In this document: positions 466 through 30,124 of the stretch, piece by piece
How positions within the stretch are numbered: position 1 is the first letter of the stretch
Layout of the letters: each line of letters begins with the position of its first letter
Source: Deltaproteobacteria bacterium
GTDB taxonomy: Bacteria > Desulfobacterota > DAOWNY01
Reading direction: 5' to 3'
NCBI GenBank assembly: GCA_030642325.1
Contig: DAOWNY010000001.1
Coordinates: 1 to 30,209, forward strand
DNA: 30,209 nt
Translations under genes and position numbers: made by a program
Notes under the pieces: generated by a model
What the model was told of the DNA's origin: nothing
Database searches by the model: none
Seen by the model: only the letters and a program-made list of their open reading frames with translations

Positions 466-709
466 TTCAAGCTGTGCAGTTAGCCTTTAGCAGTCAGCTA
501 TTAGCCAAAAAAATCACAGGCTGTTTTGCTATTACAAATTTTCACCCATTGGTGTTATTTCCTGCTTATGTAATACCTCAGTTTTTCAAAGCTAAACGCT
601 GATAGCTAATCGCTCAACTGAAGTGGAATTAGATCGGCAAATGTAACGAGATCAAACGGATGTTGAATGGTTTCATGCAAAAGCTAACACCTAACCGCAC
701 AGGTCGAAT
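466..709 (+). repeat. Intergenic repeat family A, copy 1 (heptamer-arm element with four-helix-bundle gene remnant)
   Basis: Homologous along its length to 2688-2941 and, in reverse complement, to 16463-16719. Imperfect terminal inverted repeat ttcaagctgtgcagttag / ctaaccgcacaggtcgaa (15/18). Confidence 0.9.
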
Positions 710-1229
710 TTTTTGATGGTTTTCACATGGGAAAGCTCTTAGGCATAAGGTCTCCTCGGTAATTTATCAAGTGGAAATGCAGAGCGCCGTTTTATCGAAA
801 ATTTCACTAGCGATTAGTCGTAAAGTATAGGGCGTTTACATCAATTATGCAACTGGTGAATCCAAATTTTGATTTCATCACTTTTTTCGGCCGGGATTAA
901 TATGGCGGCCATTAATGGAAAAGATCAACAAAATATTGAGGGACTACTTGTAAAAGGTTGGTTGATGTGTTAAAAATTTATTAGAAGGTAAAGATTGGCG
1001 TCCCTTAAAACTTCAAGACAACGGAGCGATCTTTACATGTCCGGCGGCTATATTTTTCAGACGGCTGCCCCCTGAATTCACTTAGATCTTTTCCGTTTTT
1101 TTGGCCGGGGATTTCCTTGTAAAAAGGAAACCTTCAAGTTTTTAATATTTTTTGATAGTTCAAGTTTCTTCCAACTGCAAATTCAAAACGCCTTTGGTTG
1201 ATCGAAATGTTTTTTGGCGTTTAATTTTT

Positions 1230-1422
1230 TGTATCCGTTCACAGACAGTTTACGGTTTGCAGTTAACTATTGGCAAGAATCCGGATCTAAGATGTAACCA
1301 TGAGTTTTTTTTTGAACAATTTAAAAGAATTTGCGAGCCCTAATCCCGAAATTGGAATCAATACCGAGCATGTTTTTTATCGTTTTCAAATTCATTTCAT
1401 TGAAAGACCGTGAACGGTTACA
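1230..1422 (+). repeat. Intergenic repeat family B, copy 1 (MITE-like, TGTA...TACA ends)
   Basis: Ends tgtatccgttcac / gtgaacggttaca (12/13 inverted repeat). Both ends are homologous to the reverse complement of 29935-30124 and to 21302-21475. Flanked by ATTTTT on both sides. Confidence 0.8.
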
Positions 1423-1553
1423 ATTTTTTTAGCAAGTGACTGTTTTTGGGAAAACACCTGATTTATAGTCTATTGTCTGATTTACCAAGGGGTTAACCCG
1501 CCTTATTGAGCTATACGTAATCATTAATATATAAAGGTAAAAGGGATAAAACC

Positions 1554-2162
1554 ATGCAAGTAAAGAAAAGGATGGCGGAAAAACTGATTACCGTGTCTAA
1601 AGACATGAGCATACCCGAGGCGATTGGTTTGATGAAAAAGTATTCCATCCGACATCTTCCGGTGGTTGATAACGATAGTCTGGTTGGGTTTATCACCGAG
1701 TCTGACATGAGGCAGGCCTACCTTGCTTCTCTTCTGGATGAAATGATCATCGATGATGTAATGATTAAAAATCCCATTACCATTGAACCGGATGCCGATC
1801 TTGAAGAAGCTGTGGAGCTGATATATCGCAATAAGATCGGCGGATTACCGGTAGTTAAAGATGGGAAAATAAAAGGAATTATCACGGTAGCGGATATTTT
1901 AGCGGTTTTTATTGAGATTATGGGAGTTTTAAAGTCGAGTTCCAGGATCGATGTTATCCTGGGAGAAAAACCCGAGGCCTTTGAGGAAGTTTCCCGCATA
2001 ATTAAGACCAATGGGGGGGAGATAATCAGTGTGGGGATGTCGAATTACCACCAGGGTAAATCAAAAAGAGTCTATTTTTTTAGATTGGAAAAATGTGAGG
2101 TGGAACCCATTGTTAAATCCCTGGAAGAAACTGGTTACCAGATAGTTTCAGTAATTAAATAG
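1554..2162 (+). CDS. CBS-domain pair plus C-terminal ACT-like domain protein (AcuB-like)
   Basis: Two CBS motifs (IRHLPVV; IGGLPVV...GIIT) followed by an ACT-like segment; 202 aa. Confidence 0.85.
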   Translation: MQVKKRMAEKLITVSKDMSIPEAIGLMKKYSIRHLPVVDNDSLVGFITESDMRQAYLASLLDEMIIDDVMIKNPITIEPDADLEEAVELIYRNKIGGLPVVKDGKIKGIITVADILAVFIEIMGVLKSSSRIDVILGEKPEAFEEVSRIIKTNGGEIISVGMSNYHQGKSKRVYFFRLEKCEVEPIVKSLEETGYQIVSVIK

Positions 2163-2199
2163 CCCTGATAATAGTTATTTGTTAACATTGAAAAACTAG

Positions 2200-2610
2200 A
2201 TGCGAAATGTCAAGATTAAAACTGAGGCGGGTTTCAAAAAATGTTTTGCCTGTGGGAGCGAAAATCCCATAGGGCTTAAACTCAATTTCCGCAAAGAGGG
2301 AGAAACGGCCATGGCCGAATTTTTTCCCGATCAATACCATCAGGGCTGGCCCGGGATTGTCCATGGGGGGTTAATATGCACCCTCTTGGATGAAGCAATG
2401 GGCTATGTTACTCGTTACCAGGGGGTAAAAACCATTACGGCTAAGATGGAAATTAAGTTTTCCAAGCCGGCAAGGTCCGATCAAAAACTATACATCATCG
2501 GTGAGATAACCCAAAAAAACAGAAAATTAGTAAAGACCCGGGGTCGCATAGAACTGGAAGACGGGTCGGTAGTGGCAGATGCCACGGCCCTTATGTATGT
2601 TTTTGCCTAA
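2200..2610 (+). CDS. PaaI family (hotdog-fold) thioesterase
   Basis: CFACGxxNPxGL N-terminus and HQGWPGIVHGGLICTLLDEAMG motif. Confidence 0.88.
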   Translation: MRNVKIKTEAGFKKCFACGSENPIGLKLNFRKEGETAMAEFFPDQYHQGWPGIVHGGLICTLLDEAMGYVTRYQGVKTITAKMEIKFSKPARSDQKLYIIGEITQKNRKLVKTRGRIELEDGSVVADATALMYVFA

Positions 2611-2617
2611 TTTTTTG

Positions 2618-2634
2618 TGCCCCGATAAGGGGCA
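2618..2634 (+). terminator. Possible weak terminator hairpin after the thioesterase gene
   Basis: tgcccc-gataa-ggggca, a 6-bp stem 8 nt after the stop codon. The downstream U-tract is poor. Confidence 0.3.
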
Positions 2635-2687
2635 TCGAGATTTTAGCCTGGAGATGACGGTATTTTTTTCATTCCTGTTTTTCATTC

Positions 2688-2941
2688 TGAGCGGTTAGCC
2701 TTTAGCAGTTAGCTATTAGCCAAAATGATCACAGGCTGTTTTGCTATTACAAGTTTTCACCCATTGGGTGTTATTTCAAGCTCCCGTAATACCTCGGTTG
2801 TTCAAAGCTAAACGTTTGTATGCTGATAGCTGATCGCTCAACTTAAGGTTGGAATTAAATCGGCAAATGTAACGAGATCAAGCGGATGTTGAATGGTTTC
2901 ATGCAAAACTAACACTTAAATAGCTAATACCTAGCCGCACA
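2688..2941 (+). repeat. Intergenic repeat family A, copy 2
   Basis: tgagcggttagcctttagcagttagctattagcc...ctagccgcaca, collinear with 473-701. Contains the NEIKRMLNGFMQ remnant at 2871-2912. Confidence 0.9.
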
Positions 2942-3048
2942 GGTCGATTTTTTTCGAAGTGAACAAAAAGGCCGACCTTCTTAATTTGTTGACAGTGAAT
3001 TGATAATCATGAAAATTACGATAAGTGAGGGTTTGAAAGGAGGAAAGC

Positions 3049-4032
3049 ATGTACTTTCCAGATTATCGTCCAAGGAGGCTTAGAAAAAACAAGGATTTCC
3101 GAAGGATGATCAGGGAGACTCAACTTTCAACTGATCATCTGGTCATGCCCCTTTTCACAGTCCATGGAAAAGGCATAAAAAAAGAGATCGGTTCAATGCC
3201 CGGCAATTATCAGCTGTCTGTTGATTACCTCGTCGGAAAGGCAAAGGAAATATTTAACCTGGGCATTCCGGCCGTCCTCTTATTCGGCATTCCTGAAAAA
3301 AAAGATGAATTTGGTTCGGAGGGTTATGCCGAGAACGGAATAATACAAACAGCGTTGAGATCTTTAAAGGAGGCTGTTCCTGATTTAATGGTCATAACCG
3401 ATGTCTGCCTTTGCGAATATACCAGTCATGGTCACTGCGGAATAGTTGTGGACGGGGAGGTGGACAATGATTCAACCCTGGAGGTCCTGGCAAATATGGC
3501 CCTTTCCCATGTGGAGGCAGGAGCGGATATGGTGGCCCCCTCGGATATGATGGATGGCCGGGTGGCGGAAATAAGAAAAATCCTTGACGAAAATGCATAT
3601 GACAACATTCCAATTATGTCTTATGCTGCCAAATATGCCTCCGGTTTTTATGGACCGTTTCGGGAAGCGGCCGAGTCTGCGCCCCAATTTGGCGACCGGC
3701 GTTCTTATCAGATGGATCCGGGAAATTCCGATGAGGCAATCAGGGAAGTACGATTAGACATTGAAGAGGGTGCGGATATTGTCATGATAAAACCGGCCGG
3801 TCATTACCTGGATATTATACTCAGGGTTAAACAGGAATTTCAGATGCCGGTGGCGGCCTACCAGGTGAGTGGAGAATTTGCCATGATCAAGGCGGCGGAA
3901 AAACTTGGGTGGATTGATGGAGAACGGCTGATGATGGAATCTCTTCTTTCTATTAAACGGGCGGGGGCGGATATTATCATCACTTATTTTGCCGAAGAGG
4001 CGACAAAGATATTAAATGCCGGGAGGGGTTAG
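3049..4032 (+). CDS. hemB: Porphobilinogen synthase (delta-aminolevulinic acid dehydratase)
   Basis: RPRRLR N-terminus, [14 protein letters not shown] zinc motif, [35 protein letters not shown] upstream. Confidence 0.98.
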
Positions 4033-5094
4033 ATGATTAAGTCTGAATTGCGGATGATTGCCTGGGAGGTCACTCGTAGTTGTAACCTTTCTTGTGTCCA
4101 CTGTCGGGCATCTGCAGAGGAAGGACCCTATGAAAACGAACTCACCACTGGTGAATGTTTGGATCTTATAGATAATGTTGCTTCTTTCAGCAATCCCATC
4201 ATCATCCTTACCGGAGGTGAACCCCTTTTGAGGGAAGATATATTCGAGATCGCTTCCCATGGAAAAAAGAGGGGGATAAGAATGGTCATGGCGGTTAACG
4301 GCACACTGGTTAATGATGAAAATATCAAAAAAATGGTAGAGGCGGGGATCGCCAGGATCAGCATCAGCATCGATGGTGAAACCCCATCGGCCCATGATCA
4401 ATTTCGTCAAATGGAAGGGGCCTTTGCAGGGGCCATGAACGGCATAAAGTTTGCCAAAAAGGAGGGTATGGAATTTCAGATCAATACCACCATTACCCAG
4501 GATAATCTTAATCAGATCGAAGGGATTCTCAATTTGTCAATAAAACTGGGGGCGGTTGCCCACCATATCTTCCTTCTTGTCCCCACCGGTCGCGGGAAGG
4601 ACATGGTAGAAAAAAGTCTTTCTCCGGAAGATTATGAAAAGACGCTCTACTGGTTCTATAAACAGAGGGATAAGGTTCCTCTTCAACTAAAGGCAACCTG
4701 CGCCCCCCATTATTATCGAATTCTCCGGCAGGAGGCAAAGAAGGAAGGAAAAATAGTAACTCCCCGAACTTACGGTCTCGACGCAACCACACGGGGTTGC
4801 CTGGGGGGGATTTCTTTCTGTTTCATCTCCCATCGTGGCGATACCCAGCCCTGCGGATATTTAGAAGTCAATTGCGGTAATGTAAGAGAAAAAAGCCTGG
4901 AAGAAATCTGGAAGAAATCAAAAATATTTAATGAGTTAAGGGATATCTCCAGTTTAAAGGGAAAATGTGGAATCTGTGAATTCCGCATGGTTTGTGGTGG
5001 TTGTCGAGCCAGGGCGTATGAGGCTTGTGGGGATTATATGGCAGAAGAACCACTCTGTAGTTACCAACCCGTCCACAATCGGGACGAGGAGTAA
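4033..5094 (+). CDS. ahbD: Radical SAM/SPASM heme b synthase (AdoMet-dependent, alternative heme pathway)
   Basis: LRMIAWEVTRSCNLSCVHCRASA CxxxCxxC motif, LTGGEPLLR, LLVPTGRG, ATCAPH and C-terminal SPASM cysteines. The CRASA/ATCAPH pattern and adjacency to hemB favour AhbD over AhbC. Confidence 0.82.
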   Translation: MIKSELRMIAWEVTRSCNLSCVHCRASAEEGPYENELTTGECLDLIDNVASFSNPIIILTGGEPLLREDIFEIASHGKKRGIRMVMAVNGTLVNDENIKKMVEAGIARISISIDGETPSAHDQFRQMEGAFAGAMNGIKFAKKEGMEFQINTTITQDNLNQIEGILNLSIKLGAVAHHIFLLVPTGRGKDMVEKSLSPEDYEKTLYWFYKQRDKVPLQLKATCAPHYYRILRQEAKKEGKIVTPRTYGLDATTRGCLGGISFCFISHRGDTQPCGYLEVNCGNVREKSLEEIWKKSKIFNELRDISSLKGKCGICEFRMVCGGCRARAYEACGDYMAEEPLCSYQPVHNRDEE

Positions 5095-5200
5095 AGAATT
5101 CTGGCCCAGAGGACCAGGTTTCCCCATTTAAAATGAAATCAGTCCAAAGCTAACACAATACGAGGAATTTAAGGGTTAAAATTAGATACATTAAATTTGT

Positions 5201-5854
5201 TCAGGTTCTTTCCCCAAATATCCGGGTCCCTATTCTTACTATGTTTGCCCCCTCTTTGATGGCAATCAGGTAAGAGCTAGACATGCCCATCGATAGGTAT
5301 TTCATCTCCACTCCCTCAATTTTCCGGGATTTAATTGTTTCAAATAAGTTTTTGGTTTCTTTGAAGCAGGGCCTAGAATCTTCCGGGTTTCCTCCAAGGG
5401 GACCCATAGTCATAAGCCCCAGCACCTTTATATTTTTGAGAGAAGAGATGTCTTTGATCAAACTTTCCGCTTCTTCGGGCATAACTCCGTATTTCCGCTT
5501 CTCCCTTCCGCTGTTGATCTCGATCAATATCGGAATGACCTTACCTTCCAACCGGCACCTTTTGTCAACCTCTTTTGCCAGCCTTAAGGAATCTATGGTC
5601 TCAATTATATCAAATATTTTTACGGCATCTTTCACTTTGTTTGTTTGCAGGTGACCAATAAAGTGCCATTTCACTTTTTTCCCTACTATTGCAAAGGCAT
5701 CTTTTGCTTCCTGGAGGTAGTTTTCCCCGATAATCTCAATTCCCCCCGCAATTGCCTTCAGGATTTCCTCGGCACTCCTGGTTTTTGCCGCTGCTACCAA
5801 CTGAACCCCTTCCGGTAGCCCGCCCAATATTTTTTTTACATTTTCTTTAATCAT
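5201..5854 (-). CDS. yggS: YggS family pyridoxal phosphate-binding (PLP homeostasis) protein
   Basis: LVAAAKT, GENYLQE, WHFIGHLQTNK, GLMTM, LSMGMS, VRIGTRIFG motifs. Confidence 0.96.
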   Translation of the reverse strand: MIKENVKKILGGLPEGVQLVAAAKTRSAEEILKAIAGGIEIIGENYLQEAKDAFAIVGKKVKWHFIGHLQTNKVKDAVKIFDIIETIDSLRLAKEVDKRCRLEGKVIPILIEINSGREKRKYGVMPEEAESLIKDISSLKNIKVLGLMTMGPLGGNPEDSRPCFKETKNLFETIKSRKIEGVEMKYLSMGMSSSYLIAIKEGANIVRIGTRIFGERT

Positions 5855-5960
5855 ATTAATACTCGAATAAGAATAAATTAAACAATTTTATTGACAATAT
5901 CCATCCTTTATCCAAAAAATTATTCAGCCTATTTGTTTGAAGGCTTTTGAGAAAGGGGCG

Positions 5961-6644
5961 TCATATTTTACCTGTTTCTTTTAAGGTTTCTTTAAATACT
6001 TTGTAAAATTTATCATTATCCGCGATGGCATTGCTCAAGATCTTTTTTATGTTAGGGACATCTTCAGAACTAACAGTCAAGTTGACGCTTTGAGAAAAAG
6101 CTGCCATATTATCCATGGTGCGGTAATTATCTCCGATCAGAACGCAGAATAGATTCCTTCTGGTAGACATGGGCATGGGTTGGATGTAATTGAGAACCGG
6201 ATTGTTTGAAGAATTGCATCCCCCAAAAGCTTCGTTAATAATTATTAGATCATATCGGTTATATCTCATTTTGTCCAGAGCATTATCGGGGGTAGCGGCC
6301 ACATGGACATAATAGCCCAATTCGTCCAGAACAGCCTGTATCATCTCCTGATTTTTTGATACATCATCACAAGTTAGAGCTGTTTTGATTTCCTCCCCAA
6401 AAAAGAAGGATTTTGCCTCATCGATATCCGGAGCAGTAACAGGGGTCGCCGTATCCGGTCCGGTTAATTTTTTTTCCCGGGAAGTGCCCGGATCTGATTT
6501 ATCATCCGGCTGCCCTTGAGTTATGGTGTTTAAATAAATTTTATTTTTACACTTGGGGCAAACTACATTTAAAATCTTATTTTTAGGGAGTTTGTCGTCG
6601 GCAATTTTAAATTTAGCGGCACAAGCCTCACAAAAAATTTCCAT
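5961..6644 (-). CDS. Zinc-ribbon (CxxC...CxxC, MJ0042-like finger) protein with C-terminal atypical receiver-like domain
   Basis: N-terminus CEACAAKFKIADDKLP...VVCPKC, a low-complexity linker, then a REC-like fold (CDD...LDELGY.V..A...ALDKMRYNRYDLIIINE). Confidence 0.75.
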   Translation of the reverse strand: MEIFCEACAAKFKIADDKLPKNKILNVVCPKCKNKIYLNTITQGQPDDKSDPGTSREKKLTGPDTATPVTAPDIDEAKSFFFGEEIKTALTCDDVSKNQEMIQAVLDELGYYVHVAATPDNALDKMRYNRYDLIIINEAFGGCNSSNNPVLNYIQPMPMSTRRNLFCVLIGDNYRTMDNMAAFSQSVNLTVSSEDVPNIKKILSNAIADNDKFYKVFKETLKETGKI

Positions 6645-6718
6645 ATTTCTTACCTTATTTCTTAATAATTTTTTTATCCGGAAAAGGATAATTCACAATG
6701 CACCCGGGATTATCGGCA

Positions 6719-7918
6719 TCATCTCTTTTTAGCAAGCAAGTTTCCAAATTGATCGTATTCATCACCGTACGCTTCATCAATCTTCAGCCCTTCAATATCG
6801 GTGGTCTTTTCTCCCTTAGCACTCTTGATCTGGTCTATTCCCCGTCCCACAACTGACTTTTTAGAAGCATAAGCGACGCTGGTCTCTTCGCTAACCAATC
6901 CATTATGGTAAGCTGTGATAATATCCCGGTCAAAGGTTTTCATGCCAAAGGGTTCACTGACTTCCATTATTTCATAAAAGGTCTTTCCCTCGGATTCTCC
7001 ATGTTCAATTGATTCTTTTACCCGCAGGTTTGATCCCATAATTTCGAATACTGCCTTCCTTCCTCCCCCGATCTTGGGAAGTAGTCGCTGGGATACCACC
7101 CATCTTGTGGTATCTGCCAATCGCACTCTTATCTGTTTTTCCTCGTCAGTATCGAACATACCGATGATTCGGTTGATAGTTTGCCCGGCATCTACCGTGT
7201 GGAGGGTACTTAATACCAGATGACCTGTCTCCGCAGCCGCGAGTCCGATTTCCACCGTCTCCCGATCCCTCATTTCTCCCACCAGAATCACTTTTGGGGC
7301 CTGGCGGAGGGCAGCCCTGAGGCCGGTGGCAAAAGTGTCAAAATCTTTTCCCAGCTCCCGCTGATTAAAGGTAGCCTTATTGTGGTGATGAATGAATTCT
7401 ACCGGATCTTCAAGGGTAATGACGTGCACCGGTCTTTCCTTGTTGATTACATCGAGCATAGCTGCCAATGAAGTGGTTTTTCCCGAACCTGTAGCACCGG
7501 TTAACATAACAATTCCGTTTTTTTCCTGGGATATTTTATGAAATACCCGGGGTAGCTTGAGGCTCTCGATGGTGGGAATTTCAGTTGGCAACTTTCTCAT
7601 CACGAGGGAATAGAAGCTTCTTTGGGAAAAAACATTTACCCGGAACCTCGCTTCTCCGGTGAGATAATACGAAGAATCGCAGCTCCCTTCCCGGATTAAT
7701 ATCTCAGTAAGCCGCCGGTCGGAATTTATGAGATTGAGGGCAATCATTTCCGTTTGAAAGGGAGTCAATTCTTCAATTTTTTCGGAAATGGGAACCGGTA
7801 CCAGCTGACCGGAGGCTTCCACCTGGAGGGGTCTGCCCACGGTAAAATTTAGGTCCGATACCCCCTCATGGGCTTGGAGCATAGTGGTAAATATATAATC
7901 CATCTCCGATTTTCTCAT
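6719..7918 (-). CDS. PilT/PilU family type IV pilus ATPase (second paralog)
   Basis: Walker A GATGSGKTT, ITLEDPVE, ALRQAPKVILVGEMRD, TLHT. ATG at 7918 preferred to the GTG at 7924. Confidence 0.9.
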   Translation of the reverse strand: MRKSEMDYIFTTMLQAHEGVSDLNFTVGRPLQVEASGQLVPVPISEKIEELTPFQTEMIALNLINSDRRLTEILIREGSCDSSYYLTGEARFRVNVFSQRSFYSLVMRKLPTEIPTIESLKLPRVFHKISQEKNGIVMLTGATGSGKTTSLAAMLDVINKERPVHVITLEDPVEFIHHHNKATFNQRELGKDFDTFATGLRAALRQAPKVILVGEMRDRETVEIGLAAAETGHLVLSTLHTVDAGQTINRIIGMFDTDEEKQIRVRLADTTRWVVSQRLLPKIGGGRKAVFEIMGSNLRVKESIEHGESEGKTFYEIMEVSEPFGMKTFDRDIITAYHNGLVSEETSVAYASKKSVVGRGIDQIKSAKGEKTTDIEGLKIDEAYGDEYDQFGNLLAKKR

Positions 7919-8139
7919 GATCACCCCTAATTAGTATTAATTTTCGCTATTTTTTCTCATGATCCGCATTACTATCGGGATATAAAAAAAGAATGCAAAC
8001 AAAGAAACCATCTAAATTTTTTCCAGACTGTCGAACATTTTGCATGTGGTGAAACCCGGAAACCCGTGAACCGGGTAGATTGCAATCAAAGCACCGCAAA
8101 TGGTTACCTGGAAGAAGGATTTTAAAAAAACTGATCGCC

Positions 8140-9216: not shown

Positions 9217-9431
9217 GTTATTCTCCGTTATTTGCTTATTTGCTTATTTGATTATGTTTTTTCCGGCACACCTATTTTCCAAACTGTTACGGGTTCGGAA
9301 TAAAGGCTAAACATTTCCGTCTATTTTCCCCCTTAAAATAAAGGTGGTAAAGGGATGAAACGGTAAAGAAAATAGACTAAATTTCCTTTTTACCATATGA
9401 TGACTTAAAATAAAGACTACCTGAAATGCAC

Positions 9432-9446
9432 GCAAAAAATATGCCA
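9432..9446 (-). promoter_or_regulatory. Putative sigma-54 (-24/-12) promoter for the pilT cluster
   Basis: Minus strand reads TGGCATATTTTTTGC, with GG and GC at the exact consensus spacing of TGGCACG-N4-TTGC. It lies about 215 nt upstream of the pilT start. Confidence 0.6.
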
Positions 9447-16180: not shown

Positions 16181-16462
16181 GAATATAAAAATAATACCTC
16201 AAATTTTAACCCAAGGTCAATGTGGTCAAGCCTGCGCATGGATCTTAATTAAAGCGGTCAACAGTCAAACGTGGACTTGATCCATCCTTTTTTATCTTGG
16301 AACTTTAAACCTTAGGACAGTTGCCAAAGATTTTTTTTTCCAGTATAAAAGAAGAAACGATGTTTTGGTTCCGGTATGTCCGGGTTATCTTGTTTTGGGA
16401 AAATATTTCGAGATCATTTAATGAAACCGGTCGCTGCAAACAGTTGCCGCAATTTTTCGACC

Positions 16463-16719
16463 TTGTGCGGTTAGGTATTAGCTATTTAAGTGTTAGCTTT
16501 TGCATGAAACCATTCAACGGCCGGTTGATCTCATTACATTTGCCGATCTAATTCCAACCTTAAGTTGAGCGATCAGCTGTCAGCACACAAACGTTTAGCT
16601 TTTGAAAAACCGAGGTATTACGACAGCTTGAAAAACACTCAATAGGTTAAAATTTGTAATAGCAAAAGATCCTGTGATTATTTTGTCTAATAGCTGACTG
16701 CTAAAGGCTAACCGCACAA
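16463..16719 (-). repeat. Intergenic repeat family A, copy 3 (inverted orientation)
   Basis: Reverse complement is collinear with copies 1 and 2. Perfect 12-bp terminal inverted repeat ttgtgcggttag / ctaaccgcacaa. Remnant NEINRPLNGFMQKLTLK* at 16535-16482. Confidence 0.9.
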
Positions 16720-16774
16720 CTTGCAATTTTTGTTATGCAGTGTTACTTAAGCCGATTTAAAAAAAATATTAAAG

Positions 16775-19033: not shown

Positions 19034-19587
19034 TCAAATTTATGCATCTGTTTTACCGGTTGCCTGTTTTTAAAACTTGATTGCATAGGAAATCCCATTT
19101 TTTAATCAATTATATCAATTAGTTTCCTGACTGTGTTGTGCTAACAGCTCGCCCAAAGGGCGCTAATTTAAGGCGCCTATGGACACTCCGGATTTTGTTG
19201 GAGCGACGTGATTTTGACTTCTTTCGAGTGCATAAAAATTAATAGATATTTCGTTTTTAAGTGGATTTTGTAAAAATTTAGTGGTATAGAATAAAAGATT
19301 AATAAAATGCTTTACTTATAACTCAAACTGGTCTATGTTCTTTTTATTATAATGATACGTGATCAGTTAGCTTAGCCAAAGAAGTCGGTTCATTCTTTAA
19401 CCTGACAAAATCCCCTTCGTGCTACCCCTTTTTTTAAAAGGGGGCTGCAAAATCTCCCAAATTTTTATAGGTGTTGTACCAATGAGGAGGTTGTTACCCA
19501 ATCTTTATTCCAGTTTTAAGGATAGGGTCGGGTTAAATGCAGGCTTGTGGGAACCGGCCGCTGATTAAATAAGTAATGATTAAACAA

Positions 19588-19635: not shown

Positions 19636-19648
19636 ATAACAGGATTCA

Positions 19649-21280: not shown

Positions 21281-21301
21281 TATTCAAGCTTTAAGCTCCG
21301 G

Positions 21302-21475
21302 GGTTCACGGTTCACGGTTTGCAGTTAACAGTTCACGGTTTGCAGTTAACTACAACCTGAATTGAGCGCTTAGCTTTTAGCAGATTGCTATTAGCCAAAA
21401 TGATCACATGCCGAGCATATTTGCATTGTTATAAAATTCATTTCATTGAAAAAACCGCGAACCGTGAACGGTTAC
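21302..21475 (+). repeat. Intergenic repeat family B, copy 2 (carries a family A left arm)
   Basis: Heptamer array ggttcac ggttcac ggtttgc agttaac agttcac ggtttgc agttaac on the left and aaccgcg aaccgtg aacggtt on the right. The interior is homologous to copies B1 and B3. Confidence 0.8.
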
Positions 21476-21544
21476 CTTGAAGCTATATTTGAATCCGTAT
21501 GGATCAAGTTGAGAATAGATGGAAATAAGGAGGAACAAGGGGAT

Positions 21545-21991
21545 ATGTCGCCAGAAACGAAAGAAAAAGAAGAGTTTATAATAAAAGATAAAAGGTCCTT
21601 TTCCTCTTCAGGAGAAAGAAGAAATAAAGAGGAGAAGGAAAGACCTTCCCCCGCCGCAAAAAATGCAAATATTGGTGATGGGGGAAAAAGAGATGAAAAA
21701 CCGAAGGAAAATAAGGGAGAAGGGAGAAGCAGAGCCCCCCTTCCCGAAGCAAATTTTTCAAATTTTATTTTTTCTCTCAGTACATCTGCTCTGGTACATT
21801 TGGGAGCAATTCACAATCCGGTCTCAAAAAAAAGCGAGGAGAATCTTCCCCTGGCAAAACATACCATAGATACTATCAATATGATTAAAAGAGTGACCAA
21901 GGGAAATCTTAGTCAGGACGAGGAGACTCTACTGGAGAAAATTATTTACGACTTACAGATGTATTATGTAAGTAAAACCAAGAGGAGCTAA
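21545..21991 (+). CDS. DUF1844 domain-containing protein
   Basis: PEANFSNFIFSLSTSAL..LG...P...NLPLAKHTID...KRVTKGNLSQDEE.LL..I.YDLQM.YV. The start was moved from the track's 21446 (inside repeat B2) to ATG 21545, which has purine-rich RBS-like sequence upstream. Confidence 0.8.
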   Translation: MSPETKEKEEFIIKDKRSFSSSGERRNKEEKERPSPAAKNANIGDGGKRDEKPKENKGEGRSRAPLPEANFSNFIFSLSTSALVHLGAIHNPVSKKSEENLPLAKHTIDTINMIKRVTKGNLSQDEETLLEKIIYDLQMYYVSKTKRS

Positions 21992-22003
21992 GGGAGGAAA
22001 GAT

Positions 22004-23494
22004 ATGCTTAAACAAAAGTTTTCATTTCTTGCACTGGGATTGGTAGCTTTGCTGGCATTGACGGCATGGTTGTTGATATCCTCCAGGGTGGAGCATGCGC
22101 CGGAATTAAAAGCCGTTTCCCCCCAGAGTAAAGAGATGAAAGATGCAGGCGGTGATTCTGCCGTCAAGTTAAAATTACCCTCCTTTGTAGAAATAGCAAA
22201 AGAAATGAAGTCGGCGGTGGTTAATATAAGCACTACTAAGCTGGTACAGGGGGGTGGAAGGGTATTCAGGCAATTTAAGGGTCCTTTGGGCGAATCTTTT
22301 GAGGATTTTTTCGGAAAGGATTTTTTTGAAAAATTTTTTGGGGATACTCCCCGAAAGGACCGGATCCAGAAAAGTCTGGGGTCCGGTTTTATTATTGATA
22401 AGGAGGGTTATATCCTGACCAATAATCACGTAATTGAAAAAGCGGATAAGATTATGGTAAAACTCTCCAACGAAAAAGAGTTCAAAGCCAGGGTAATAGG
22501 GTTGGACTCCGAAACGGATCTGGCTTTGATAAAAATTGATACCAATGTTGATCTGCCTTTACTTAAACTGGGAGATTCGGATAAATTGGAGACGGGAGAG
22601 TGGGTAATTGCAGTTGGTAATCCATTTGGGCTGGAGCATACGGTAACTGCGGGAATTGTGAGTGCCAAGGGCCGAGTGATCGGGGCAGGCCGTTACGACG
22701 ATTTTATCCAGACCGATGCCTCCATCAATTTCGGAAATAGTGGCGGGCCCCTCATTAATTCCCGGGGAGCGGTAGTCGGAATTAATACGGCAATTGTTGC
22801 CGGAGGTCAGGGAATAGGGTTTGCCATTCCTATCAATATGGCAAAGAAAATCATCCCTCAGCTGAAAAACAGAGGAAAGGTGATCCGGGGATGGTTGGGA
22901 ATCTCCATTCAGGATTTAACTTCCGAGTTGGCCAGGTATTATGGAGTAAAACAGGAAGAGGGTGCTTATGTTGCTGAAGTTATAGAAGATAATCCGGCAG
23001 ACATGGCCGGGATGAAAGCCGGGGATATTGTCATAGACATTGATGGTCATGAAATTCGGGATTCTCGTGAACTGCTTAAAATAGTGGCATCAATTACGGT
23101 GGGTAGAACAGTCATAGTCAAGGTTCTAAGGGATGGGAAAGAAAAAACTCTTTCCATCAAGGCAGGCGAGAGACCTGAAAGAAAGGATTTTATTGCAAAG
23201 GGGGAGGATGCAACTGATCAGTTGGGACTCAAGGTTCGTGAACTAACCCCTGAAATTGTTCGACACCATAAGTTGATTGACTCTAAAGGAGTTATGGTAA
23301 CCGATATAAAACCTGACAGCCTTGCGGAACAGGCGGGGATTAAAAGAGGGGATATAGTAAAGGAAATCAACCACAGGCCAATAGATAGTTTTGATGATTA
23401 TATTTCAATAATGAAAAAAATGGAAAATGAGAAAAAAATATCTTTCCTGATCAGGAGGGATTCTGCCTATATAGCCATTGAAATCAATCGATAG
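22004..23494 (+). CDS. Do/DegQ (HtrA) family periplasmic serine protease with two PDZ domains
   Basis: SLGSGFIID, TNNHV, DLALIK, QTDASINFGNSGGPL catalytic motifs, two PDZ domains and an N-terminal signal/TM segment. RBS GGGAGG. Confidence 0.95.
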   Translation: MLKQKFSFLALGLVALLALTAWLLISSRVEHAPELKAVSPQSKEMKDAGGDSAVKLKLPSFVEIAKEMKSAVVNISTTKLVQGGGRVFRQFKGPLGESFEDFFGKDFFEKFFGDTPRKDRIQKSLGSGFIIDKEGYILTNNHVIEKADKIMVKLSNEKEFKARVIGLDSETDLALIKIDTNVDLPLLKLGDSDKLETGEWVIAVGNPFGLEHTVTAGIVSAKGRVIGAGRYDDFIQTDASINFGNSGGPLINSRGAVVGINTAIVAGGQGIGFAIPINMAKKIIPQLKNRGKVIRGWLGISIQDLTSELARYYGVKQEEGAYVAEVIEDNPADMAGMKAGDIVIDIDGHEIRDSRELLKIVASITVGRTVIVKVLRDGKEKTLSIKAGERPERKDFIAKGEDATDQLGLKVRELTPEIVRHHKLIDSKGVMVTDIKPDSLAEQAGIKRGDIVKEINHRPIDSFDDYISIMKKMENEKKISFLIRRDSAYIAIEINR

Positions 23495-23525
23495 CCGATC
23501 ATTCCATTTCCGGAGGTTGCCTTTT

Positions 23526-24377
23526 TTGGATTCCATCGAACTATTATCCCCTGCAAAGGTCAATCTCAGGCTGATTGTCCTAAAAAAGAGGGGGGACGGA
23601 TACCATGAACTTCAGACTATTATGCAGCTGGTTGATCTCTATGATGATGTGAAAATATTAAAAAACTTAAAAAGAAATATTTCCCTTCAGTGCAGGGGAG
23701 AGGGTGTTCCGTCGGGAAGGGAAAACCTTGCCTACAGGGCTGCCCAAACCTTTTTTGAAGTGACCGGAGGAAACCACGGAGTTGATATATTCATCAATAA
23801 AAGAATTCCAACAAGCGCCGGTTTGGGAGGGGGAAGCAGCAACGCTGCTTCTGTAATAATGGGTTTGAACAGACTCTATAATTACAATTTATCCAATGAA
23901 GACTTGAGGAAAATCGGTCGGGATATAGGGGCTGATGTTCCCTTTTTCATCTTTAGAAAAACTGCCGTTGCCGGCGGGATTGGGGAAGAATTGAAAGCAA
24001 TTGATTTTATCCCGAATTTCTGGTTTATTTTAGTAAACCCCGGGTTTGAGGTTTCTACTGCCTGGGCTTTTAGAAATTTAAATCTGAGGTTGACAAAACG
24101 GGCAATAAATACTAGTATCAACTCATTTACATGGCAGCATTGCAATTATGACGAGCTTTTCCAAAACGATTTGGAAAAAGTTACAATAAAAAGATATCCG
24201 GTTATTCAAGAAATAAAAGATGCTTTGATTTCAAGTGGGGCATATGCTTCTTTAATGTCGGGGAGCGGGCCAACTGTCTTCGGCATCTTTTCCGGAAAAA
24301 GAAAGGCGCAAGATATTATGGAAAAATTGTGTTCCAGATATAATAGTTGGAGGATGTTTCTAGTTAAGAGTATTTAA
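23526..24377 (+). CDS. ispE: 4-(cytidine 5'-diphospho)-2-C-methyl-D-erythritol kinase
   Basis: SPAKVNL, GYHEL, KRIPTSAGLGGGSSNAA, GADVPFF, MSGSGPTVF. Start set at TTG 23526, 9 nt after GGAGG (23512-23516). Confidence 0.95.
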   Translation: MDSIELLSPAKVNLRLIVLKKRGDGYHELQTIMQLVDLYDDVKILKNLKRNISLQCRGEGVPSGRENLAYRAAQTFFEVTGGNHGVDIFINKRIPTSAGLGGGSSNAASVIMGLNRLYNYNLSNEDLRKIGRDIGADVPFFIFRKTAVAGGIGEELKAIDFIPNFWFILVNPGFEVSTAWAFRNLNLRLTKRAINTSINSFTWQHCNYDELFQNDLEKVTIKRYPVIQEIKDALISSGAYASLMSGSGPTVFGIFSGKRKAQDIMEKLCSRYNSWRMFLVKSI

Positions 24378-24403
24378 AAAATAATTTAATGGAGGAGTAA
24401 GGC

Positions 24404-24706
24404 ATGGAGGTTACAGAGGTTAGGGTATTTCCAGTCAGTGAAGAAAAGTTGAAAGCTTATGTAACAATTACCTTCGATGATTGCTTCGTGATCCGTGATT
24501 TGAGGATCATAAATGGAAATAACGGGTTGTTTGTAGCCATGCCCAGTAAAAAAAGGAAAAACGGAACCTTTAAGGACATAGCCCACCCTTTAAATAATGA
24601 TACCCGACGATTGATTGAAACAAAAGTCTTGAATGAATATGAATTGGAGTTGGCAAAAGCGGAGGAAAGTATTGTAGGGGTTGAGCATCAATTAGGCGAA
24701 CAATAG
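24404..24706 (+). CDS. spoVG: SpoVG family nucleic-acid-binding regulator
   Basis: MEVTEVRVF...LKAYVTITFDDCFVIRDLRII.G.NGLFVAMPSKK...FKDIAHP; RBS GGAGGAG. Confidence 0.95.
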   Translation: MEVTEVRVFPVSEEKLKAYVTITFDDCFVIRDLRIINGNNGLFVAMPSKKRKNGTFKDIAHPLNNDTRRLIETKVLNEYELELAKAEESIVGVEHQLGEQ

Positions 24707-24963
24707 GTTATGCCTTAAGATTTTATGTTTATGAGAGCTTTGTGTAATAGAATTTTTCATCCTTAAATTTTTTCGACACTTTTATTTGCTTAACCGCCAA
24801 TGCAAAACCCCCCTGCTTCGGCGGATCAGCCGGTTGATTTTGTCACAGTTTAGTTTTAAGGGAATTGTTTAAGAAAAAACTTCATTTTCTTTCCAGGTTC
24901 TATTTCTAATTATTCAAAGTTTTCGCAATCAATATAATCCGGAAATTAATTATAAAAATATTT

Positions 24964-25038
24964 TGGGGTGTCGTCAAGTGGCAAGACACGGGTTTTTGGT
25001 GCCCGCATTCGGAGGTTCGAGTCCTCCCACCCCAGCCA
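24964..25038 (+). tRNA. tRNA-Gln (anticodon TTG)
   Basis: Acceptor stem TGGGGTG/CACCCCA, discriminator G, encoded CCA. Anticodon stem CGGGT/GCCCG with loop TTTTGGT; T arm GGAGGTTCGAGTCCTCC. Confidence 0.96.
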
Positions 25039-25172
25039 TCATTTTCTGTATGTATCATTTTTGATTGGTTGACAATCAGCGTTTAGGCCTTTGCCCGCTG
25101 GTTTAGTTCAGTAATAAAAAATGACTGTTAACAAATTACGGTCGACCAGAAAGGATAGGAAGCCAAATCCAA

Positions 25173-26114
25173 ATGACTGAAAGACTAAAAGTGTTTTCCG
25201 GAAATTCCAATCTTCCATTGGCCAGGAATATCTGTCGATTTCTAGACATAGAGTTGGGAAGGGCAGAGGTTAAAACTTTCAGTGATGGAGAAATATTTGT
25301 TGAGATCGCTGAAAGTGTAAGGGGAATGGATGTTTTTGTAATTCAATCCACCTGCTTTCCCGTAAACCATAATCTGATGGAGCTTTTGGTAATGATCGAT
25401 GCTCTAAAAAGGGCTTCAACGAGTCGGATTACAGCGGTTATGCCCTATTACGGGTATGCAAGGCAAGATCGGAAAGTTTCCCCGAGGACCCCGATTACCG
25501 CCAAATTGGTGGCTGACTTAATAACAACCGCGGGGGCTTCCCGGGTTTTGGCTTTGGACCTCCACGCCGGACAAATACAAGGTTTTTTTAACATTCCGGT
25601 TGACAATCTTTATGCCGTAACAGTAATTTTAGAATACATCAGGCAAAATTTACATAACGATCTGGTCATTGTATCCCCCGATCCCGGAGGAGTAGAAAGA
25701 GCCCGGGCATTTGCCAAGCGCCTGGAGACTTCGCTGGCCATTATTGATAAAAGAAGGCCTGAACCGAATGTAGCCAAAATAATGAACGTGGTTGGGGAGG
25801 TTAAGGGCAAGAATGCCATTCTTCTGGACGACATGATTGATACTGCCGGAACCATTACTCAGGCTGCCCTGGCATTGAAGGAAAAGGGAGCAAACACGGT
25901 ATATGCCTGCTGTACTCATCCGGTTTTTTCAGGATCGGCCATTGAGCGGATAGAAGGTTCCTGTTTGGAAAAAGTAGTGGCAACCGATACTGTCGCCTTG
26001 AAGGAGGAGGCCTTATCATGCAAAAAGATAGAAATATTGTCCGTTGCCAACCTACTGGGGGAGGCAATCAGAAGGATAAATGAAGAGGATTCGGTTAGCG
26101 AACTGTTTATTTAA
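25173..26114 (+). CDS. prs: Ribose-phosphate pyrophosphokinase
   Basis: [48 protein letters not shown]. Confidence 0.98.
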
Positions 26115-26231
26115 TAATTTTATAGATAGATAGATGTAGAATCAATGTAATCGTTTCCGGTTGACGGTTCACAGCCACCAGTTAATTGAAACCGAATTTC
26201 AGATTTACCGAGGTCTGTTGGTACTATAAAA

Positions 26232-26381
26232 GGCTCAGGTACGTGATTGAGAACACAATCATATATTTTATCACAAGGGATCAGCAAGGTGACGATATGG
26301 AATCGCAAAAAACGGATTCAAAAATTGAAATCCATATCAAAAAGGCTTAAGGTACTACATAATTTATTTAAACAACCGTAA
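26232..26381 (+). pseudogene. Decayed 3' half of a four-helix-bundle protein gene (TIGR02436/PF05635-like)
   Basis: One frame reads GSGT*LRTQSYILSQG...KLKSISKRLKVLHNLFKQP*, resembling the family pattern GSxxELRTQLYIA...EISKML. It lies between inverted heptamer arrays at 26157-26183 and 26374-26408. Confidence 0.45.
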
Positions 26382-26457
26382 ATCGCAAACTGATAACCGT
26401 GAACAGTTGCGAATTAATAAACCATTTGATGATGGCTCTTAAAATAGGAAGGAAATA

Positions 26458-27129
26458 ATGGAACGTATCGAAATTGATGCTCAATACAGAGCGGAGAAAG
26501 GGAAAGGGTTTTCAAGAAAATGTAGAAAAAATGGTTTGATACCGGCAATATTTTATGGTCCGAAAACGGACCCGATCTCATTGACTCTTGATGCTGCCAA
26601 GGTAGAAAAGGTACTTCGCATCCTGACCCACAAAAATGCTATTGTAGACTTAAGGATTTCGGGTAAGGGTGAAATGATCAAAAAAGTTGCCATCCTTAAA
26701 GATCATCAGAGAAATCCGATAACAAGATCGTACATGCATGCGGATTTCTATGAGATTGTCCTGGATAAAGAGATAACCGTTTCCATTGCTATTCATCTGT
26801 CTGGAAAGCCGGTTGGGATTGATGAGGGAGGGATATTGAATCAGATTCAAAGGGAGGTGGAAGCAAAGTGCCTTCCTCTGAGTATTCCCGATAACTTCGA
26901 TATCGATGTAAGCGGGTTGGAAATCGGCCAATCAGTCCGGGTGGAGGATATTCCTTCTGTAGAGGGAGTTCAAGTAATTACTGAAAAAAATATTGTCGTT
27001 GCAGCGGTAGTTGCTCCCACCGTAGAGGTAGAAGGAGTGGAAGGGGAGGAAGAAGAAGTTGCCGAAGGCGAAGAGACGGGTGAAGAGGCAAAATCGACCA
27101 CAGAAAAAGAAGAGAAGACGGAGAGTTGA
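26458..27129 (+). CDS. rplY: 50S ribosomal protein L25 / general stress protein Ctc (long form)
   Basis: R.EKGKG..RK.R..GLIPAIFYG, QRNPITRSYMHADFY, GIDEGGIL, acidic tail. Confidence 0.95.
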   Translation: MERIEIDAQYRAEKGKGFSRKCRKNGLIPAIFYGPKTDPISLTLDAAKVEKVLRILTHKNAIVDLRISGKGEMIKKVAILKDHQRNPITRSYMHADFYEIVLDKEITVSIAIHLSGKPVGIDEGGILNQIQREVEAKCLPLSIPDNFDIDVSGLEIGQSVRVEDIPSVEGVQVITEKNIVVAAVVAPTVEVEGVEGEEEEVAEGEETGEEAKSTTEKEEKTES

Positions 27130-27132
27130 TGG

Positions 27133-27717
27133 TTGAACCTGATCGTAGGACTGGGAAATCCCGGGGAAAGATATCGGTTTACCCGGCATAACATAGGCTT
27201 TCAGGTACTGGAATTCCTTGCCGTGGAATGGAGTATCCCCATTAATAGAGAAAAGATGGGGGCCTGCTGGGGAAGAGGAAGCTTTGAAAATAATGATGTT
27301 ATATTGTTAAAACCGAATACATTCATGAATTTAAGCGGGGAAGTGGTGAGTCGCTTTGTAAGATATTTTCGGATTAACATTGAAGACATGATGGTTGTTT
27401 ATGATGATATTGACCTGGAATTTGGGACCACTAGAATCAGGGAAGGGGGGGGGAGCGGAGGTCACAAAGGGGTCCAATCGATAATAGAAAAATTGGGTGA
27501 TAATAAGTTTATCCGAATTCGGATGGGTGTTGATCGCCCTGAAAAAACCTATGATGTGTCGAATTATGTGTTGGGAGTATTTGACCAGCATCAAAGGGGT
27601 GCCGTAAAGTCATATATCAATCAAGCGGCAGAAGCGATTAAAACTGTAGTTTCCGAAGGAATGGTTGTGGCCATGAACCGTTTCAATCGCAAGGTAAAAC
27701 TGACAGAACTCAATTAA
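27133..27717 (+). CDS. pth: Peptidyl-tRNA hydrolase
   Basis: LIVGLGNPG..Y..TRHNIGF, KPNTFMNLSG, YDDIDL, GGSGGHKG, YVLG; TTG start. Confidence 0.97.
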   Translation: MNLIVGLGNPGERYRFTRHNIGFQVLEFLAVEWSIPINREKMGACWGRGSFENNDVILLKPNTFMNLSGEVVSRFVRYFRINIEDMMVVYDDIDLEFGTTRIREGGGSGGHKGVQSIIEKLGDNKFIRIRMGVDRPEKTYDVSNYVLGVFDQHQRGAVKSYINQAAEAIKTVVSEGMVVAMNRFNRKVKLTELN

Positions 27718-27751
27718 GGAATTAATTTGCTAAATTTAAGGAGTAGAAACA

Positions 27752-29833
27752 ATGTTGTGTGAAGGGTTTGTGTATATTATTCCGATGTTTGGTTTATTAG
27801 CCCTGATTTTTGCATGTAGCAAATCTATATGGGTTAATAAGCAGGATCCGGGAACGGATAAAATGCAAGAAATCTCCAGACACGTAAAAGAGGGAGCAAT
27901 GGCTTTCCTCATGCGGGAATATAAGGTATTAATAGTTTTTGTCATCTGCGTTGCGGTCCTTTTAGCAATTGCCAACCTCAAGAGTACCCCGGAAGTTTAC
28001 CGAAATCCCTTGGTGGCGCTGTCTTTTGTCCTGGGCGCGTTCTGTTCGGGGCTTTCCGGTTATTTTGGGATGCGCGTAGCTACATCCGCCAATTGCCGGA
28101 CCACCAATGCTGCCAGAACCAGCCTTAACAAAGCCCTGGTGGTGGCCTTCTCCGGGGGAACGGTGATGGGTATGTGCGTGGTGGGACTGGGACTTTTGGG
28201 ACTGGGAACCCTCTTTATCCTTTATTACAAAATGGGTCTCCTGGGTGATGCTTCCCATAATCTTACCGATGTGATTACAGTTCTTACCGGATTTTCCCTC
28301 GGGGCATCTTCCATCGCCCTTTTTGCCAGAGTAGGTGGCGGAATATATACTAAAGCCGCTGATGTGGGAGCGGACTTGGTGGGAAAAGTGGAAGCCGGTA
28401 TTCCTGAAGACGATCCCCGTAATCCGGCTACGATTGCCGATAATGTTGGTGACAATGTTGGTGATGTGGCGGGAATGGGTGCCGATCTATTCGAGTCTTA
28501 CGTTGGTTCAATAATTGGATCAATGGTTTTGGGCGCTACGGCTGTTGGATTTGCAGGGGCAAATTTTAACGCAGTAATGCTTCCCATGATATTGGCCGGG
28601 GCAGGAATAATTGTTTCCATGGTTGGAACCTTTTTCGTTAGAGTCAGAGAAGGGGGAAATCCCCAGAGCGCATTAAACGCCGGGATGTTTGGATCCGGGA
28701 TAATCATGCTGGTCGTAACGTATTTCGTATGCCGCTATTTAATTCCCGGGGAGATTGAGATTGCGAATTATCCGGGAATATCAGCCATGGATATCTTTTT
28801 GGCTACCATAAGCGGATTACTTGCCGGGATAGCCATCGGATTGACCACCGAGTATTACACCTCCAAAGAGAAAAGTCCTGTTCACGGTATCGCCAGTGAT
28901 TCTTTAACGGGGCCGGCCACCAACATTATTGCCGGTCTTGCGGTGGGTATGCGCTCCACCTGTCTCCCCGTTATCTGGATCTGCATGGCTATTCTTCTTT
29001 CCCATGAATTTGCCGGGTTATACGGCATTGCCATCGCTGCATTAGGAATGCTTTCGACTACAGGCATCCAGTTGGCGGTGGATGCCTACGGTCCCATTGC
29101 CGATAATGCCGGAGGGCTGGCTGAGATGGCCGCACTTCCCCCGGAAGTTAGAGAAAGGACCGACAATCTGGATGCGGTCGGCAATACCACCGCCGCCATC
29201 GGAAAGGGATTTGCAATCGGTTCGGCAGCACTAACCGCCTTAGCCCTTTTTGCCGCTTATCGAACCCAGGCGGGCATTGACACCCTTGATCTAACCCAAC
29301 CAAAAATAATGGCAGGCCTGTTCATCGGCGGCATGATGCCCTTCCTTTTTTCTTCCATGGCGATCAGTGCGGTCGGAAAAGCGGCCTTTGCCATGATTGA
29401 AGAAGTAAGACGCCAATTCCGGGAAATTGAGGGACTCCTGGAAGGTAAAGCAGTTGCCGAATACGCGAAATGCGTTGATATTGCAACTTCTGCAGCCATC
29501 AAGAAGATGGTGGCGCCTAGTCTTATGGCAATTGTTGTTCCGGTTGTTTTCGGTTTTGTAGATAAAGATGCCCTGGGCGGGCTCCTTGCCGGGGTTACCG
29601 TATCGGGTGTGCTCCTGGCCATTTTTCAGGCCAATGCGGGAGGAGCCTGGGATAACGCTAAAAAATATATTGAAGAAGGACATTACGAAGGGAAGGGATC
29701 AGACGCTCATAAGGCTGCCGTGATTGGTGATACAGTAGGTGATCCCCTTAAAGATACCAGCGGACCTTCCCTCAATATCCTCATTAAACTTATGTCGGTG
29801 GTGGCTTTAGTTATTGCCCCATTAATCAAATAA
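27752..29833 (+). CDS. hppA: Membrane-bound pyrophosphatase, K+-dependent, probably Na+-translocating
   Basis: [89 protein letters not shown]. Confidence 0.95.
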
Positions 29834-29882
29834 AAATAAATATAACATTGTGATTCAACAAGGTTCATCCAGTAAAAAGGCG

Positions 29883-29918
29883 TGCCCGGCTAAACTCTTT
29901 ATATAGAGAAGTCGGGCA
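29883..29918 (+). terminator. Hairpin after hppA, possible terminator
   Basis: tgcccggct...agtcgggca outer stem with an inner ctct/agag pairing, followed by ttctt. Confidence 0.4.
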
Positions 29919-29934
29919 TTCTTATTATAACAAC

Positions 29935-30124
29935 TGTAACGGTTCACGGTTTTTTTCAATGAAATGGATTTTATAACGATACAAAACATGTTCGGCATGT
30001 GAGCATTTTGGCTATATTAGCTGACTGCTAAAGGCTAAGTACTCAATTCAGCTCATAGTTCTTAAGATCCTAAGTTTTTACCAATAGTTAACTGTAAACC
30101 GTAAACTGTCTGTGAACGGATACA
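29935..30124 (-). repeat. Intergenic repeat family B, copy 3 (inverted; carries a family A left arm)
   Basis: Reverse complement starts tgtatccgttcacagacagtttacggttt, as B1 does, and ends accgtgaaccgttaca. Contains ttagcctttagcagtcagctaatatagccaaaatgctcaca. Confidence 0.82.

Follow-up and report, generated by a model that had tools for sequence, protein, structure and literature searches.

What occupies seven intergenic spacers of a single bacterial contig with arrays of 7-nt repeats, and how did this DNA come to be there? The contig (DAOWNY010000001.1; C53 in our numbering), taken whole as a window of 30,209 nucleotides, belongs to a Deltaproteobacteria bacterium metagenome-assembled genome (MAG; G000) of marine sediment origin, which holds 2.08 Mb in 370 contigs at 43% G+C and is ~85% complete. 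An initial annotation, made from the letters alone, had described seven elements of the same layout, in which a left arm of heptamers faces a right arm of complementary units, some of them enclosing decayed coding sequence of a four-helix-bundle protein (PF05635), and had proposed that they were miniature, non-autonomous descendants of a mobile cassette (arm, gene, inverted arm), spread by no established mechanism. We find that the window repeats are three nested families (A, B and Ah) of miniature inverted-repeat transposable elements (MITEs), and we consider it very probable that the seven elements are copies of these interleaved families descended from a small PF05635 cassette and spread in trans by DDE transposases.

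Three nested families in the window and its genome

When the window was compared with its own genome by BLAST, multicopy DNA was found at exactly the seven places described (Table 1), all between protein genes and none in 23S rRNA helix 25 or 45. The single system of like elements gave way, however, to three families with different ends, each bounded by terminal inverted repeats. Family A (E1, E3, E4; ~240–265 bp) begins with the end CAAGCTGTGCGG, followed by the array GGTTAGC-CTTTAGC-AGTTAGC-TATTAGC, a spacer of ~85 nt and an inverted array; to the right of these lie the 3' end of a PF05635 gene (its last ~25 codons), read in frame in E1 as ...CNEIKRMLNGFMQKL, a second inverted array, and the end CGACCTTGTGCGG, which occurs as CCGCACA(A)GGTCG or CGACCT(T)GTGCGG. 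Family B (E2, E5, E6, E7) has the ends GTAWCCGTTCAC / GTGAACGGWTAC, with GTAWCCGTTCAC on both sides, and inside them units of the GTTCACG, GTTTGCA and GTTAACA type; GTTCACG is both the inner 7 nt of the B end and a unit of the B arms. Family Ah is a 167-bp hairpin with TTAGC-type arrays and the ends CCTGAATTGAGCG / CGCTCAACTTAGG (the right one also as CCTAAGTTGAGCG); it makes up two thirds of A, on the left side, and E5 and E7 contain fragments of it.

Table 1. The seven elements of the window, their flanks, and the multicopy intervals and hits obtained by BLAST against the source genome
Element	Position	Strand	Family and parts	Outer ends	Flanks	Multicopy interval	Hits
E1	468..706	+	Family A MITE; GGTTAGC-type arm ~474-505; inner inverted arm ~591-615; last ~25 PF05635 codons ~640-685	CAAGCTGTGC... 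/ ...GCACAGGTCG	Perfect 8-bp duplication, AATTTTTT, at 460-467 and 707-714	457-716	~150
E2	1231..1421	+	Family B MITE; GTTNNCR heptamers; decayed gene remnant (first ~12 and last ~8 codons)	IS66-type, GTATCCGTTCAC / GTGAACGGTTAC	Perfect 8-bp duplication, AATTTTTT, at 1223-1230 and 1422-1429	1225-1431	117
E3	2683..2946	+	Family A MITE; 87-91% identity to E1 and E4		6/8 agree	2678-2962	~150
E4	16458..16723	-	Family A MITE, reverse orientation		Perfect 8-bp duplication, CAATTTTT, at 16450-16457 and 16724-16731	16449-16735	~150
E5	21298..21475	+	Family B, left end degenerate; Ah hairpin fragment ~21357-21411		No recognizable target duplication	21307-21481	231
E6	26147..26410	+	B-related; between prs and the L25 ribosomal protein gene	GTAATCGTTTCC / GAACAGTTGC	GAATCAAT / GAATTAAT, 7/8 agree	26161-26408	19
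E7	29936..30123	-	Family B, reverse orientation; Ah fragment within		No recognizable target duplication	29926-30133	231

The heptameric character of the arms was borne out by counting. The genome has 98 runs of at least four NNTNAGC units and 31 runs of at least four NGTTNNC units, against none of either in shuffled sequence, and Tandem Repeats Finder gave a period of 7 on the window arms. Genome-wide, the three families amount to 256 loci, nearly all of them intergenic, totaling 45.8 kb or 2.2% of the MAG, with 267 B and 263 Ah termini; the elements measure 56–447 bp. Repeats are present on 171 of the 370 contigs, and 83 contig ends lie within 200 bp of one. Unitigs in the source run break at elements, and the summed contig word depth rises to ~3083 across the bin that contains E4, compared with ~16 beside it; the heavy fragmentation of the MAG is explained by contigs that break at the repeats. 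Only 2.7% of repeat bases fall inside stop-free frames of at least 150 aa, versus 79.8% of all genome bases, in agreement with the earlier remark that no gene is interrupted. The transposase families that we searched likewise had no match on the window contig, as had been noted, and none within the elements.

The neighbors of the elements are housekeeping genes, encoding a radical SAM protein, a CBS-domain protein and a thioesterase, together with hemB, pyrG, lptF, a carbamoyl-phosphate synthase fragment, a DUF1844 gene, prs and the ribosomal protein L25 gene. An eighth multicopy segment, absent from the initial annotation, was found at 19068-19171, in the spacer that precedes the carbamoyl-phosphate synthase fragment; it has ~15 genome copies and is not of the heptamer-arm type.

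Movement as DNA and decay of the gene

Evidence that the elements moved came from their borders. The left flank of each copy was compared with its right flank, and mismatched left/right flank pairs served as the control. Perfect 8-bp duplications were found at 10 of 21 family A copies (4 of 420 control pairs) and at 13 of 55 family B copies, with 7/8 agreement at 15 of the 55 (5 and 72 of 2970 control pairs, respectively), and a perfect 5-bp duplication at 20 of 38 Ah copies (65 of 1406). Target sites are AT-rich; that the duplications are an artefact of target preference is argued against by the mismatched-flank controls for A and B. The families are also inserted into one another: an A copy lies within a B copy at C275:2997-3249, with the duplication AAAAACCT, and Ah copies are nested within B copies. 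Because the duplications have fixed lengths (8 bp in A and B, 5 bp in Ah), and because B has IS66-type ends, these observations point to movement as DNA by ordinary DDE transposition in trans, as is the case for MITEs and mobile insertion cassettes, rather than to the lack of any established mechanism that had been assumed.

The same evidence bears on whether the elements might be vertically inherited regulatory or terminator sequences and not mobile DNA, a reading to which we give next to no credence. Their intergenic location would suit such a role, and their ends pair in predicted RNA folds. The folding energies are, however, unremarkable (z = -1.6 and -0.95), and the Rfam search of the window gave a single match, a tRNA at 24964-25035 (55.7 bits), with no family matching any element. 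Hundreds of copies, nesting and the occurrence of the same cassette in unrelated phyla all stand against vertical inheritance, and the reading is already refuted by the existence of target duplications. No public RNA run was found that contains window sequence.

A second class of small dispersed repeats, repetitive extragenic palindromes (REPs) and the hairpins formed by pairs of them (REPINs), is spread by REP-associated tyrosine transposases (RAYTs) or IS200-type Y1 transposases, and four matches to PF01797 (Y1_Tnp) are present in the genome. One Y1 gene, accompanied by GC-rich hairpins (GTTACGCCCTTTCAGGGC), even lies in a B copy (C133:577-1544), and a second copy, 96% alike, is at C41:1-551. 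This gene is, however, a nested insertion in the B element and lacks the REP-RAYT arrangement, in which the repeats flank the transposase gene. To our knowledge, REPINs and IS200/IS605 elements have neither target duplications nor terminal inverted repeats, both of which are present here, and spread of this kind is extremely unlikely.

Two other B loci in this genome carry additional genes. At C358:6150-7180, the halves of a B cassette flank an intact 188-aa membrane-protein gene, CDP-alcohol phosphatidyltransferase-like by eye, and the split may have arisen by rearrangement, gene capture or chimeric assembly. At a contig end (C32:11345-11941), an IS4/IS5-type transposase gene (PF01609) is inserted in the left arm of a B element.

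The four-helix-bundle coding sequence reported in the window proved to be part of a graded deletion series that leads, in this genome, from gene-bearing to gene-less copies, with most copies lacking the gene. PF05635 has 20 matches in the genome, none of them a complete open gene, and the 85%-complete assembly yielded no intact copy. The longest matches are enclosed by B arms at C132:1107-1518 (412 bp) and C161 and by A arms at C241 and C226. The A2 copies (C159, C314, C366, C143) still have the A ends and arms, together with the start codon (ATG), 38 codons from the N terminus and the final 25 codons, and these copies have 8–9-bp target duplications. In the window, the 3' 83–107 nt of E1, E3 and E4 share 93–95% identity with gene-bearing copies. 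Over its right 89 nt, E6 matches an intact cassette from another genome (L119, described below) at 72% identity, in the stretch that comprises the C-terminal part of the gene and the right arm. The Pfam PF05635 model itself had no match on the window at E<=10, since the gene pieces are too short. A consensus of 20 B copies retained shared stops and frameshifts; because the copies share them, the gene was already inactive before the family multiplied here, and the protein was therefore not needed in cis.

Intact cassettes and IS66-type ends in other genomes

Intact genes flanked by such arms do exist elsewhere. At 27 loci in other genomes of the phylum, an intact PF05635 gene nearly always has a heptamer array upstream and a complementary array downstream, the units of which vary between loci. 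One of these loci, in a complete genome, is a true 23S rRNA intervening sequence (IVS) (L043; G020:C1:557794-558108, with a second copy at 3946451), in which an intact 138-aa frame lies between CTAGAGA/CTAGATA heptamer arrays.

The link to the elements of the window was provided by a gene in another genome (L035 in G005) that closely resembles the B gene. When this gene was used in a scan of one genome per species, relatives with 69–90% protein identity were found in Nitrospinota, Chlorobium, Desulfosarcina, Nitrospirota and several Deltaproteobacteria records. Two of the loci, L119 from a Deltaproteobacteria MAG (444 bp, intact 116-aa open reading frame [ORF]) and L120 from a Chlorobium MAG (453 bp, intact 115-aa ORF), have the same arms as B, ends GTAACCGTTCAC and flanks that agree at 7/8, and the B consensus of our genome is 76–78% identical to them in DNA. 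They combine insertion sequence (IS)-type ends and an intact passenger with the absence of a transposase, which are the marks of a mobile insertion cassette (MIC); in the genome studied here the passenger has decayed. A third copy of the B cassette (L123) has a gene with a stop, and L143/L145/L150 and L152, two loci in one MAG (G304), are 245-bp internal-deletion forms with 95% identity to L119. Accordingly, the proposed descent of miniature elements from an arm–gene–inverted arm cassette was supported both by the graded deletions in our genome and by intact cassettes with the same ends in others. Of the outcomes that the initial annotation had named as refuting it, those that could be checked went the other way: copies number in the hundreds, intact armed genes are present in related as well as unrelated genomes, and insertion is marked by target duplications. 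The ratio of nonsynonymous to synonymous substitution rates (dN/dS) among the intact genes was 0.03–0.11, with synonymous sites near saturation. On this evidence the intact gene is under purifying selection and retains its function, and the 12-nt ends, which are likewise conserved, are constrained in their own right. For A, the closest gene relative among ~400 genomes of the phylum was only 48% identical and had TTAGC-type arms but no A ends.

The ends of B resemble those of a known transposase family. The termini found on IS66-family elements of the phylum are GTAACCCTTCAG, in a copy flanked by an 8-bp duplication, GTAACTATTCAC, GTAACAGTTTAG, GTAACTTCTCAC and GTACACGTTCACGGGG, and ISDge4, of the ISBst12 group, has the terminal inverted repeat GTAACTGCTCAGCA and an 8-bp direct repeat (PMC12898284). 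Ends that begin with GTAA, together with an 8-bp duplication, are what is expected of a non-autonomous derivative of the IS66 family, and both are found in B. Moreover, a 2585-bp IS66-family element (L198:421-3005) in G304, the MAG that also holds L143 and L152, has the ends GTAACCGTTCACG... / ...CGTGAACGGTTAC, which are the same 13-bp ends as those of B; its coding content is a 486-aa transposase (PF03050) plus a DruA-like ORF, and about 80 elements with such ends are present in that MAG. The DruA-like ORF (L198:2017-2904, on G304:C152; 295 aa) lies upstream of the transposase gene, belongs to the Druantia DruA family (PF14236, E=1e-33) and replaces the usual IS66 TnpA/TnpB.

Copies of the 14-mer end, with at most one mismatch, were counted in five genomes in all. 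There were 216 in G301 and 167 in G304, both with IS66 transposases, 46 in G305, with IS66 fragments only, and 11 in G303 and 2 in G302, both without IS66; a reversed-pattern control gave 0–5. Copies of the end were thus most numerous where PF03050 genes are present. Among 14 end pairs sampled in G301 and G304, the 8-bp duplication was perfect in 4 and agreed at 7/8 in 6, versus 0 and 2 of 182 in the control. The contents between these ends vary and include a second type of heptamer: seven elements of 96–157 bp in the two genomes (L249, L250, L258-L262), with the same IS66-type ends and 8-bp duplications, enclose inverted GAAATTG / CCAATTT arrays and no recognizable gene.

Since the same ends bound an intact gene elsewhere and an IS66-family IS has identical ends, B is best seen as a transposase-less IS66-type cassette moved in trans. 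We conclude from its termini that B is an IS66-type non-autonomous element, and a transposase of the IS66 family (ISBst12-like or related) would have moved it; A and Ah were presumably moved by transposases of other families, and the mobilizing enzymes have probably been lost from, or are unassembled in, this 85%-complete genome. The ancestral cassette would have consisted of an outer terminal inverted repeat, a 7-nt array, the PF05635 gene, a complementary array and a second outer repeat. DDE transposases encoded elsewhere would have acted on it in trans, by a cut- or copy-and-paste reaction; the gene was already dead when the families multiplied here.

It is possible, although we regard it as doubtful, that the ends are what is mobile and the cassette is incidental cargo, so that A and B would be ordinary IS-derived MITEs that received heptamer-armed cassettes by chance. 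The variety of DNA bounded by the IS66-type ends in G301 and G304 (GAAATTG units, unrelated palindromic DNA) is compatible with this, as is the fact that target duplications round 26 intact cassettes of other lineages were not above control. On the other hand, the unit of ends, arms and gene stays at 444–453 bp in one Deltaproteobacteria MAG, one Chlorobium MAG and one unclassified MAG, and because this size is kept while synonymous sites are near saturation, the three parts travel together. The identity of the inner 7 nt of the B end with the arm unit and the presence of the gene in two independent families, A and B, also argue against chance insertion.

Very unlikely, in our judgment, is spread by a mechanism of the cassette's own, driven by the Avd-related four-helix-bundle protein or by an RNA intermediate of the sort proposed for rRNA intervening sequences, with the transposon-like ends a coincidence. 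The layout of a gene between inverted arms is general in the family, the 23S rRNA insert L043 included; selection on the intact gene and the absence of an assembled transposase in our genome would also fit. The gene was nevertheless dead before the bursts and most copies lack it, and the reverse transcriptase model PF00078 had no match in the 85%-complete genome. Duplications of constant length (8 bp and 5 bp), together with termini that an IS66-family element shares exactly, are what DDE transposition produces.

Other candidate partners were considered and set aside. A 48-aa C-terminal remnant of an ISL3 transposase (C202:3653-3796) lies 157 bp from a B end but has an ISL3-type end of its own; full-length ISL3 relatives terminate immediately behind the stop codon in GGTTCATCC..., so the remnant represents an ISL3 insertion in a cassette, not a mobilizer of B. 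An IS256-like pseudogene (C205:1-707) is without A or B ends, 13 loci examined for ISAs1 as the partner of A had no end matches at consistent positions, and a search for unpaired ends followed by a transposase gave only host genes. Repeats longer than 450 bp, sought in the assembly as possible multicopy IS, were limited to four pairs.

Several points weigh against transposition in trans as the source of the window elements. No IS66, IS1595 or other matching transposase was found in this genome, so mobilization here is deduced from other genomes, and the association of IS66 presence with end copy number rests on five genomes. No autonomous IS that shares the A or Ah ends was found, the ISL3, IS256 and ISAs1 leads having failed. 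Copies are only 75–93% alike, so the bursts are old and there is no sign of present activity. The genome collection that we searched held no relatives of the MAG closer than phylum level, and in public runs, for which only contigs are kept and in which the organism is rare outside the source sample, no contig junction skips an element exactly, as an empty allele would.

Relation to known mobile elements and repeats

The four-helix-bundle "IVS protein" family is very common, and its mobility has been suspected since the 1990s without a mechanism. ORF-bearing 23S rRNA IVSs, as in Coxiella burnetii and Leptospira, have long been suspected to be a former mobile element (PMC4990558), and they carry the same gene family between complementary ends made of tandem heptamers. 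Unlike them, the elements described here are intergenic, have a decayed gene, and possess outer transposon ends and target duplications, which are unreported for IVSs. They also differ from diversity-generating retroelements, of which Avd is an accessory protein, in that no reverse transcriptase match accompanies them in the 85%-complete genome. In the literature we found no link between PF05635 and transposon ends. The descendants of IVS-protein cassettes studied here clearly moved as DNA, one lineage with the ends of a known transposase family, and these IS66-type ends open cassette mobility to a direct experimental test.

Dispersed heptanucleotide repeats have been described in Geobacter metallireducens (PMC2700814) and in Xanthomonas and Nostoc (PMC4692102). 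Like the elements here, they are arrays of about four 7-nt units, multicopy and mainly intergenic; unlike them, the reports name no gene cargo, inverted partner array, ends or target duplications. Cassettes of the kind found here are a possible source of at least some such repeats. A broader proposal, which we hold to be unlikely, is that heptamer-armed PF05635 cassettes in general, ORF-bearing 23S rRNA IVSs among them, are transposase-less cargo of DDE transposons or started out as such. IS66-type and other transposases would then deliver the cassettes, the outer ends and duplications would erode after insertion, and the heptamer arrays would be reiterated end-proximal motifs, as the B unit GTTCACG suggests. 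If true, it would account for the spread of IVSs and, at the same time, for an excess of bacterial heptamer repeats that has lacked an explanation.

With the IS66 family and its ISBst12 group, family B shares the ends GTAACCGTTCAC(GG), identical to those of L198, and 8-bp duplications; unlike IS66 elements, B encodes no transposase, and L198 itself departs from the usual IS66 in having a DruA-like ORF upstream of its transposase in place of TnpA/TnpB. The nearest comparison is with MITEs and MICs, such as MIC231, which has IS231 ends. These too are small, intergenic, nested and present in high copy number, with terminal inverted repeats and fixed duplications, and they too have a longer form with one passenger gene and no transposase, and ends in common with an autonomous IS (for B only, and in another genome). 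They differ in that the passenger here is always PF05635, framed by inverted 7-nt arrays just inside the ends, and in that three families with different ends and duplication lengths have one build. In kind, then, the elements are MITEs and their intact form is a mobile insertion cassette, both already known; what this genome adds is three co-resident families on one cassette plan, which differ in ends and duplication lengths and in which the gene was dead during the burst.

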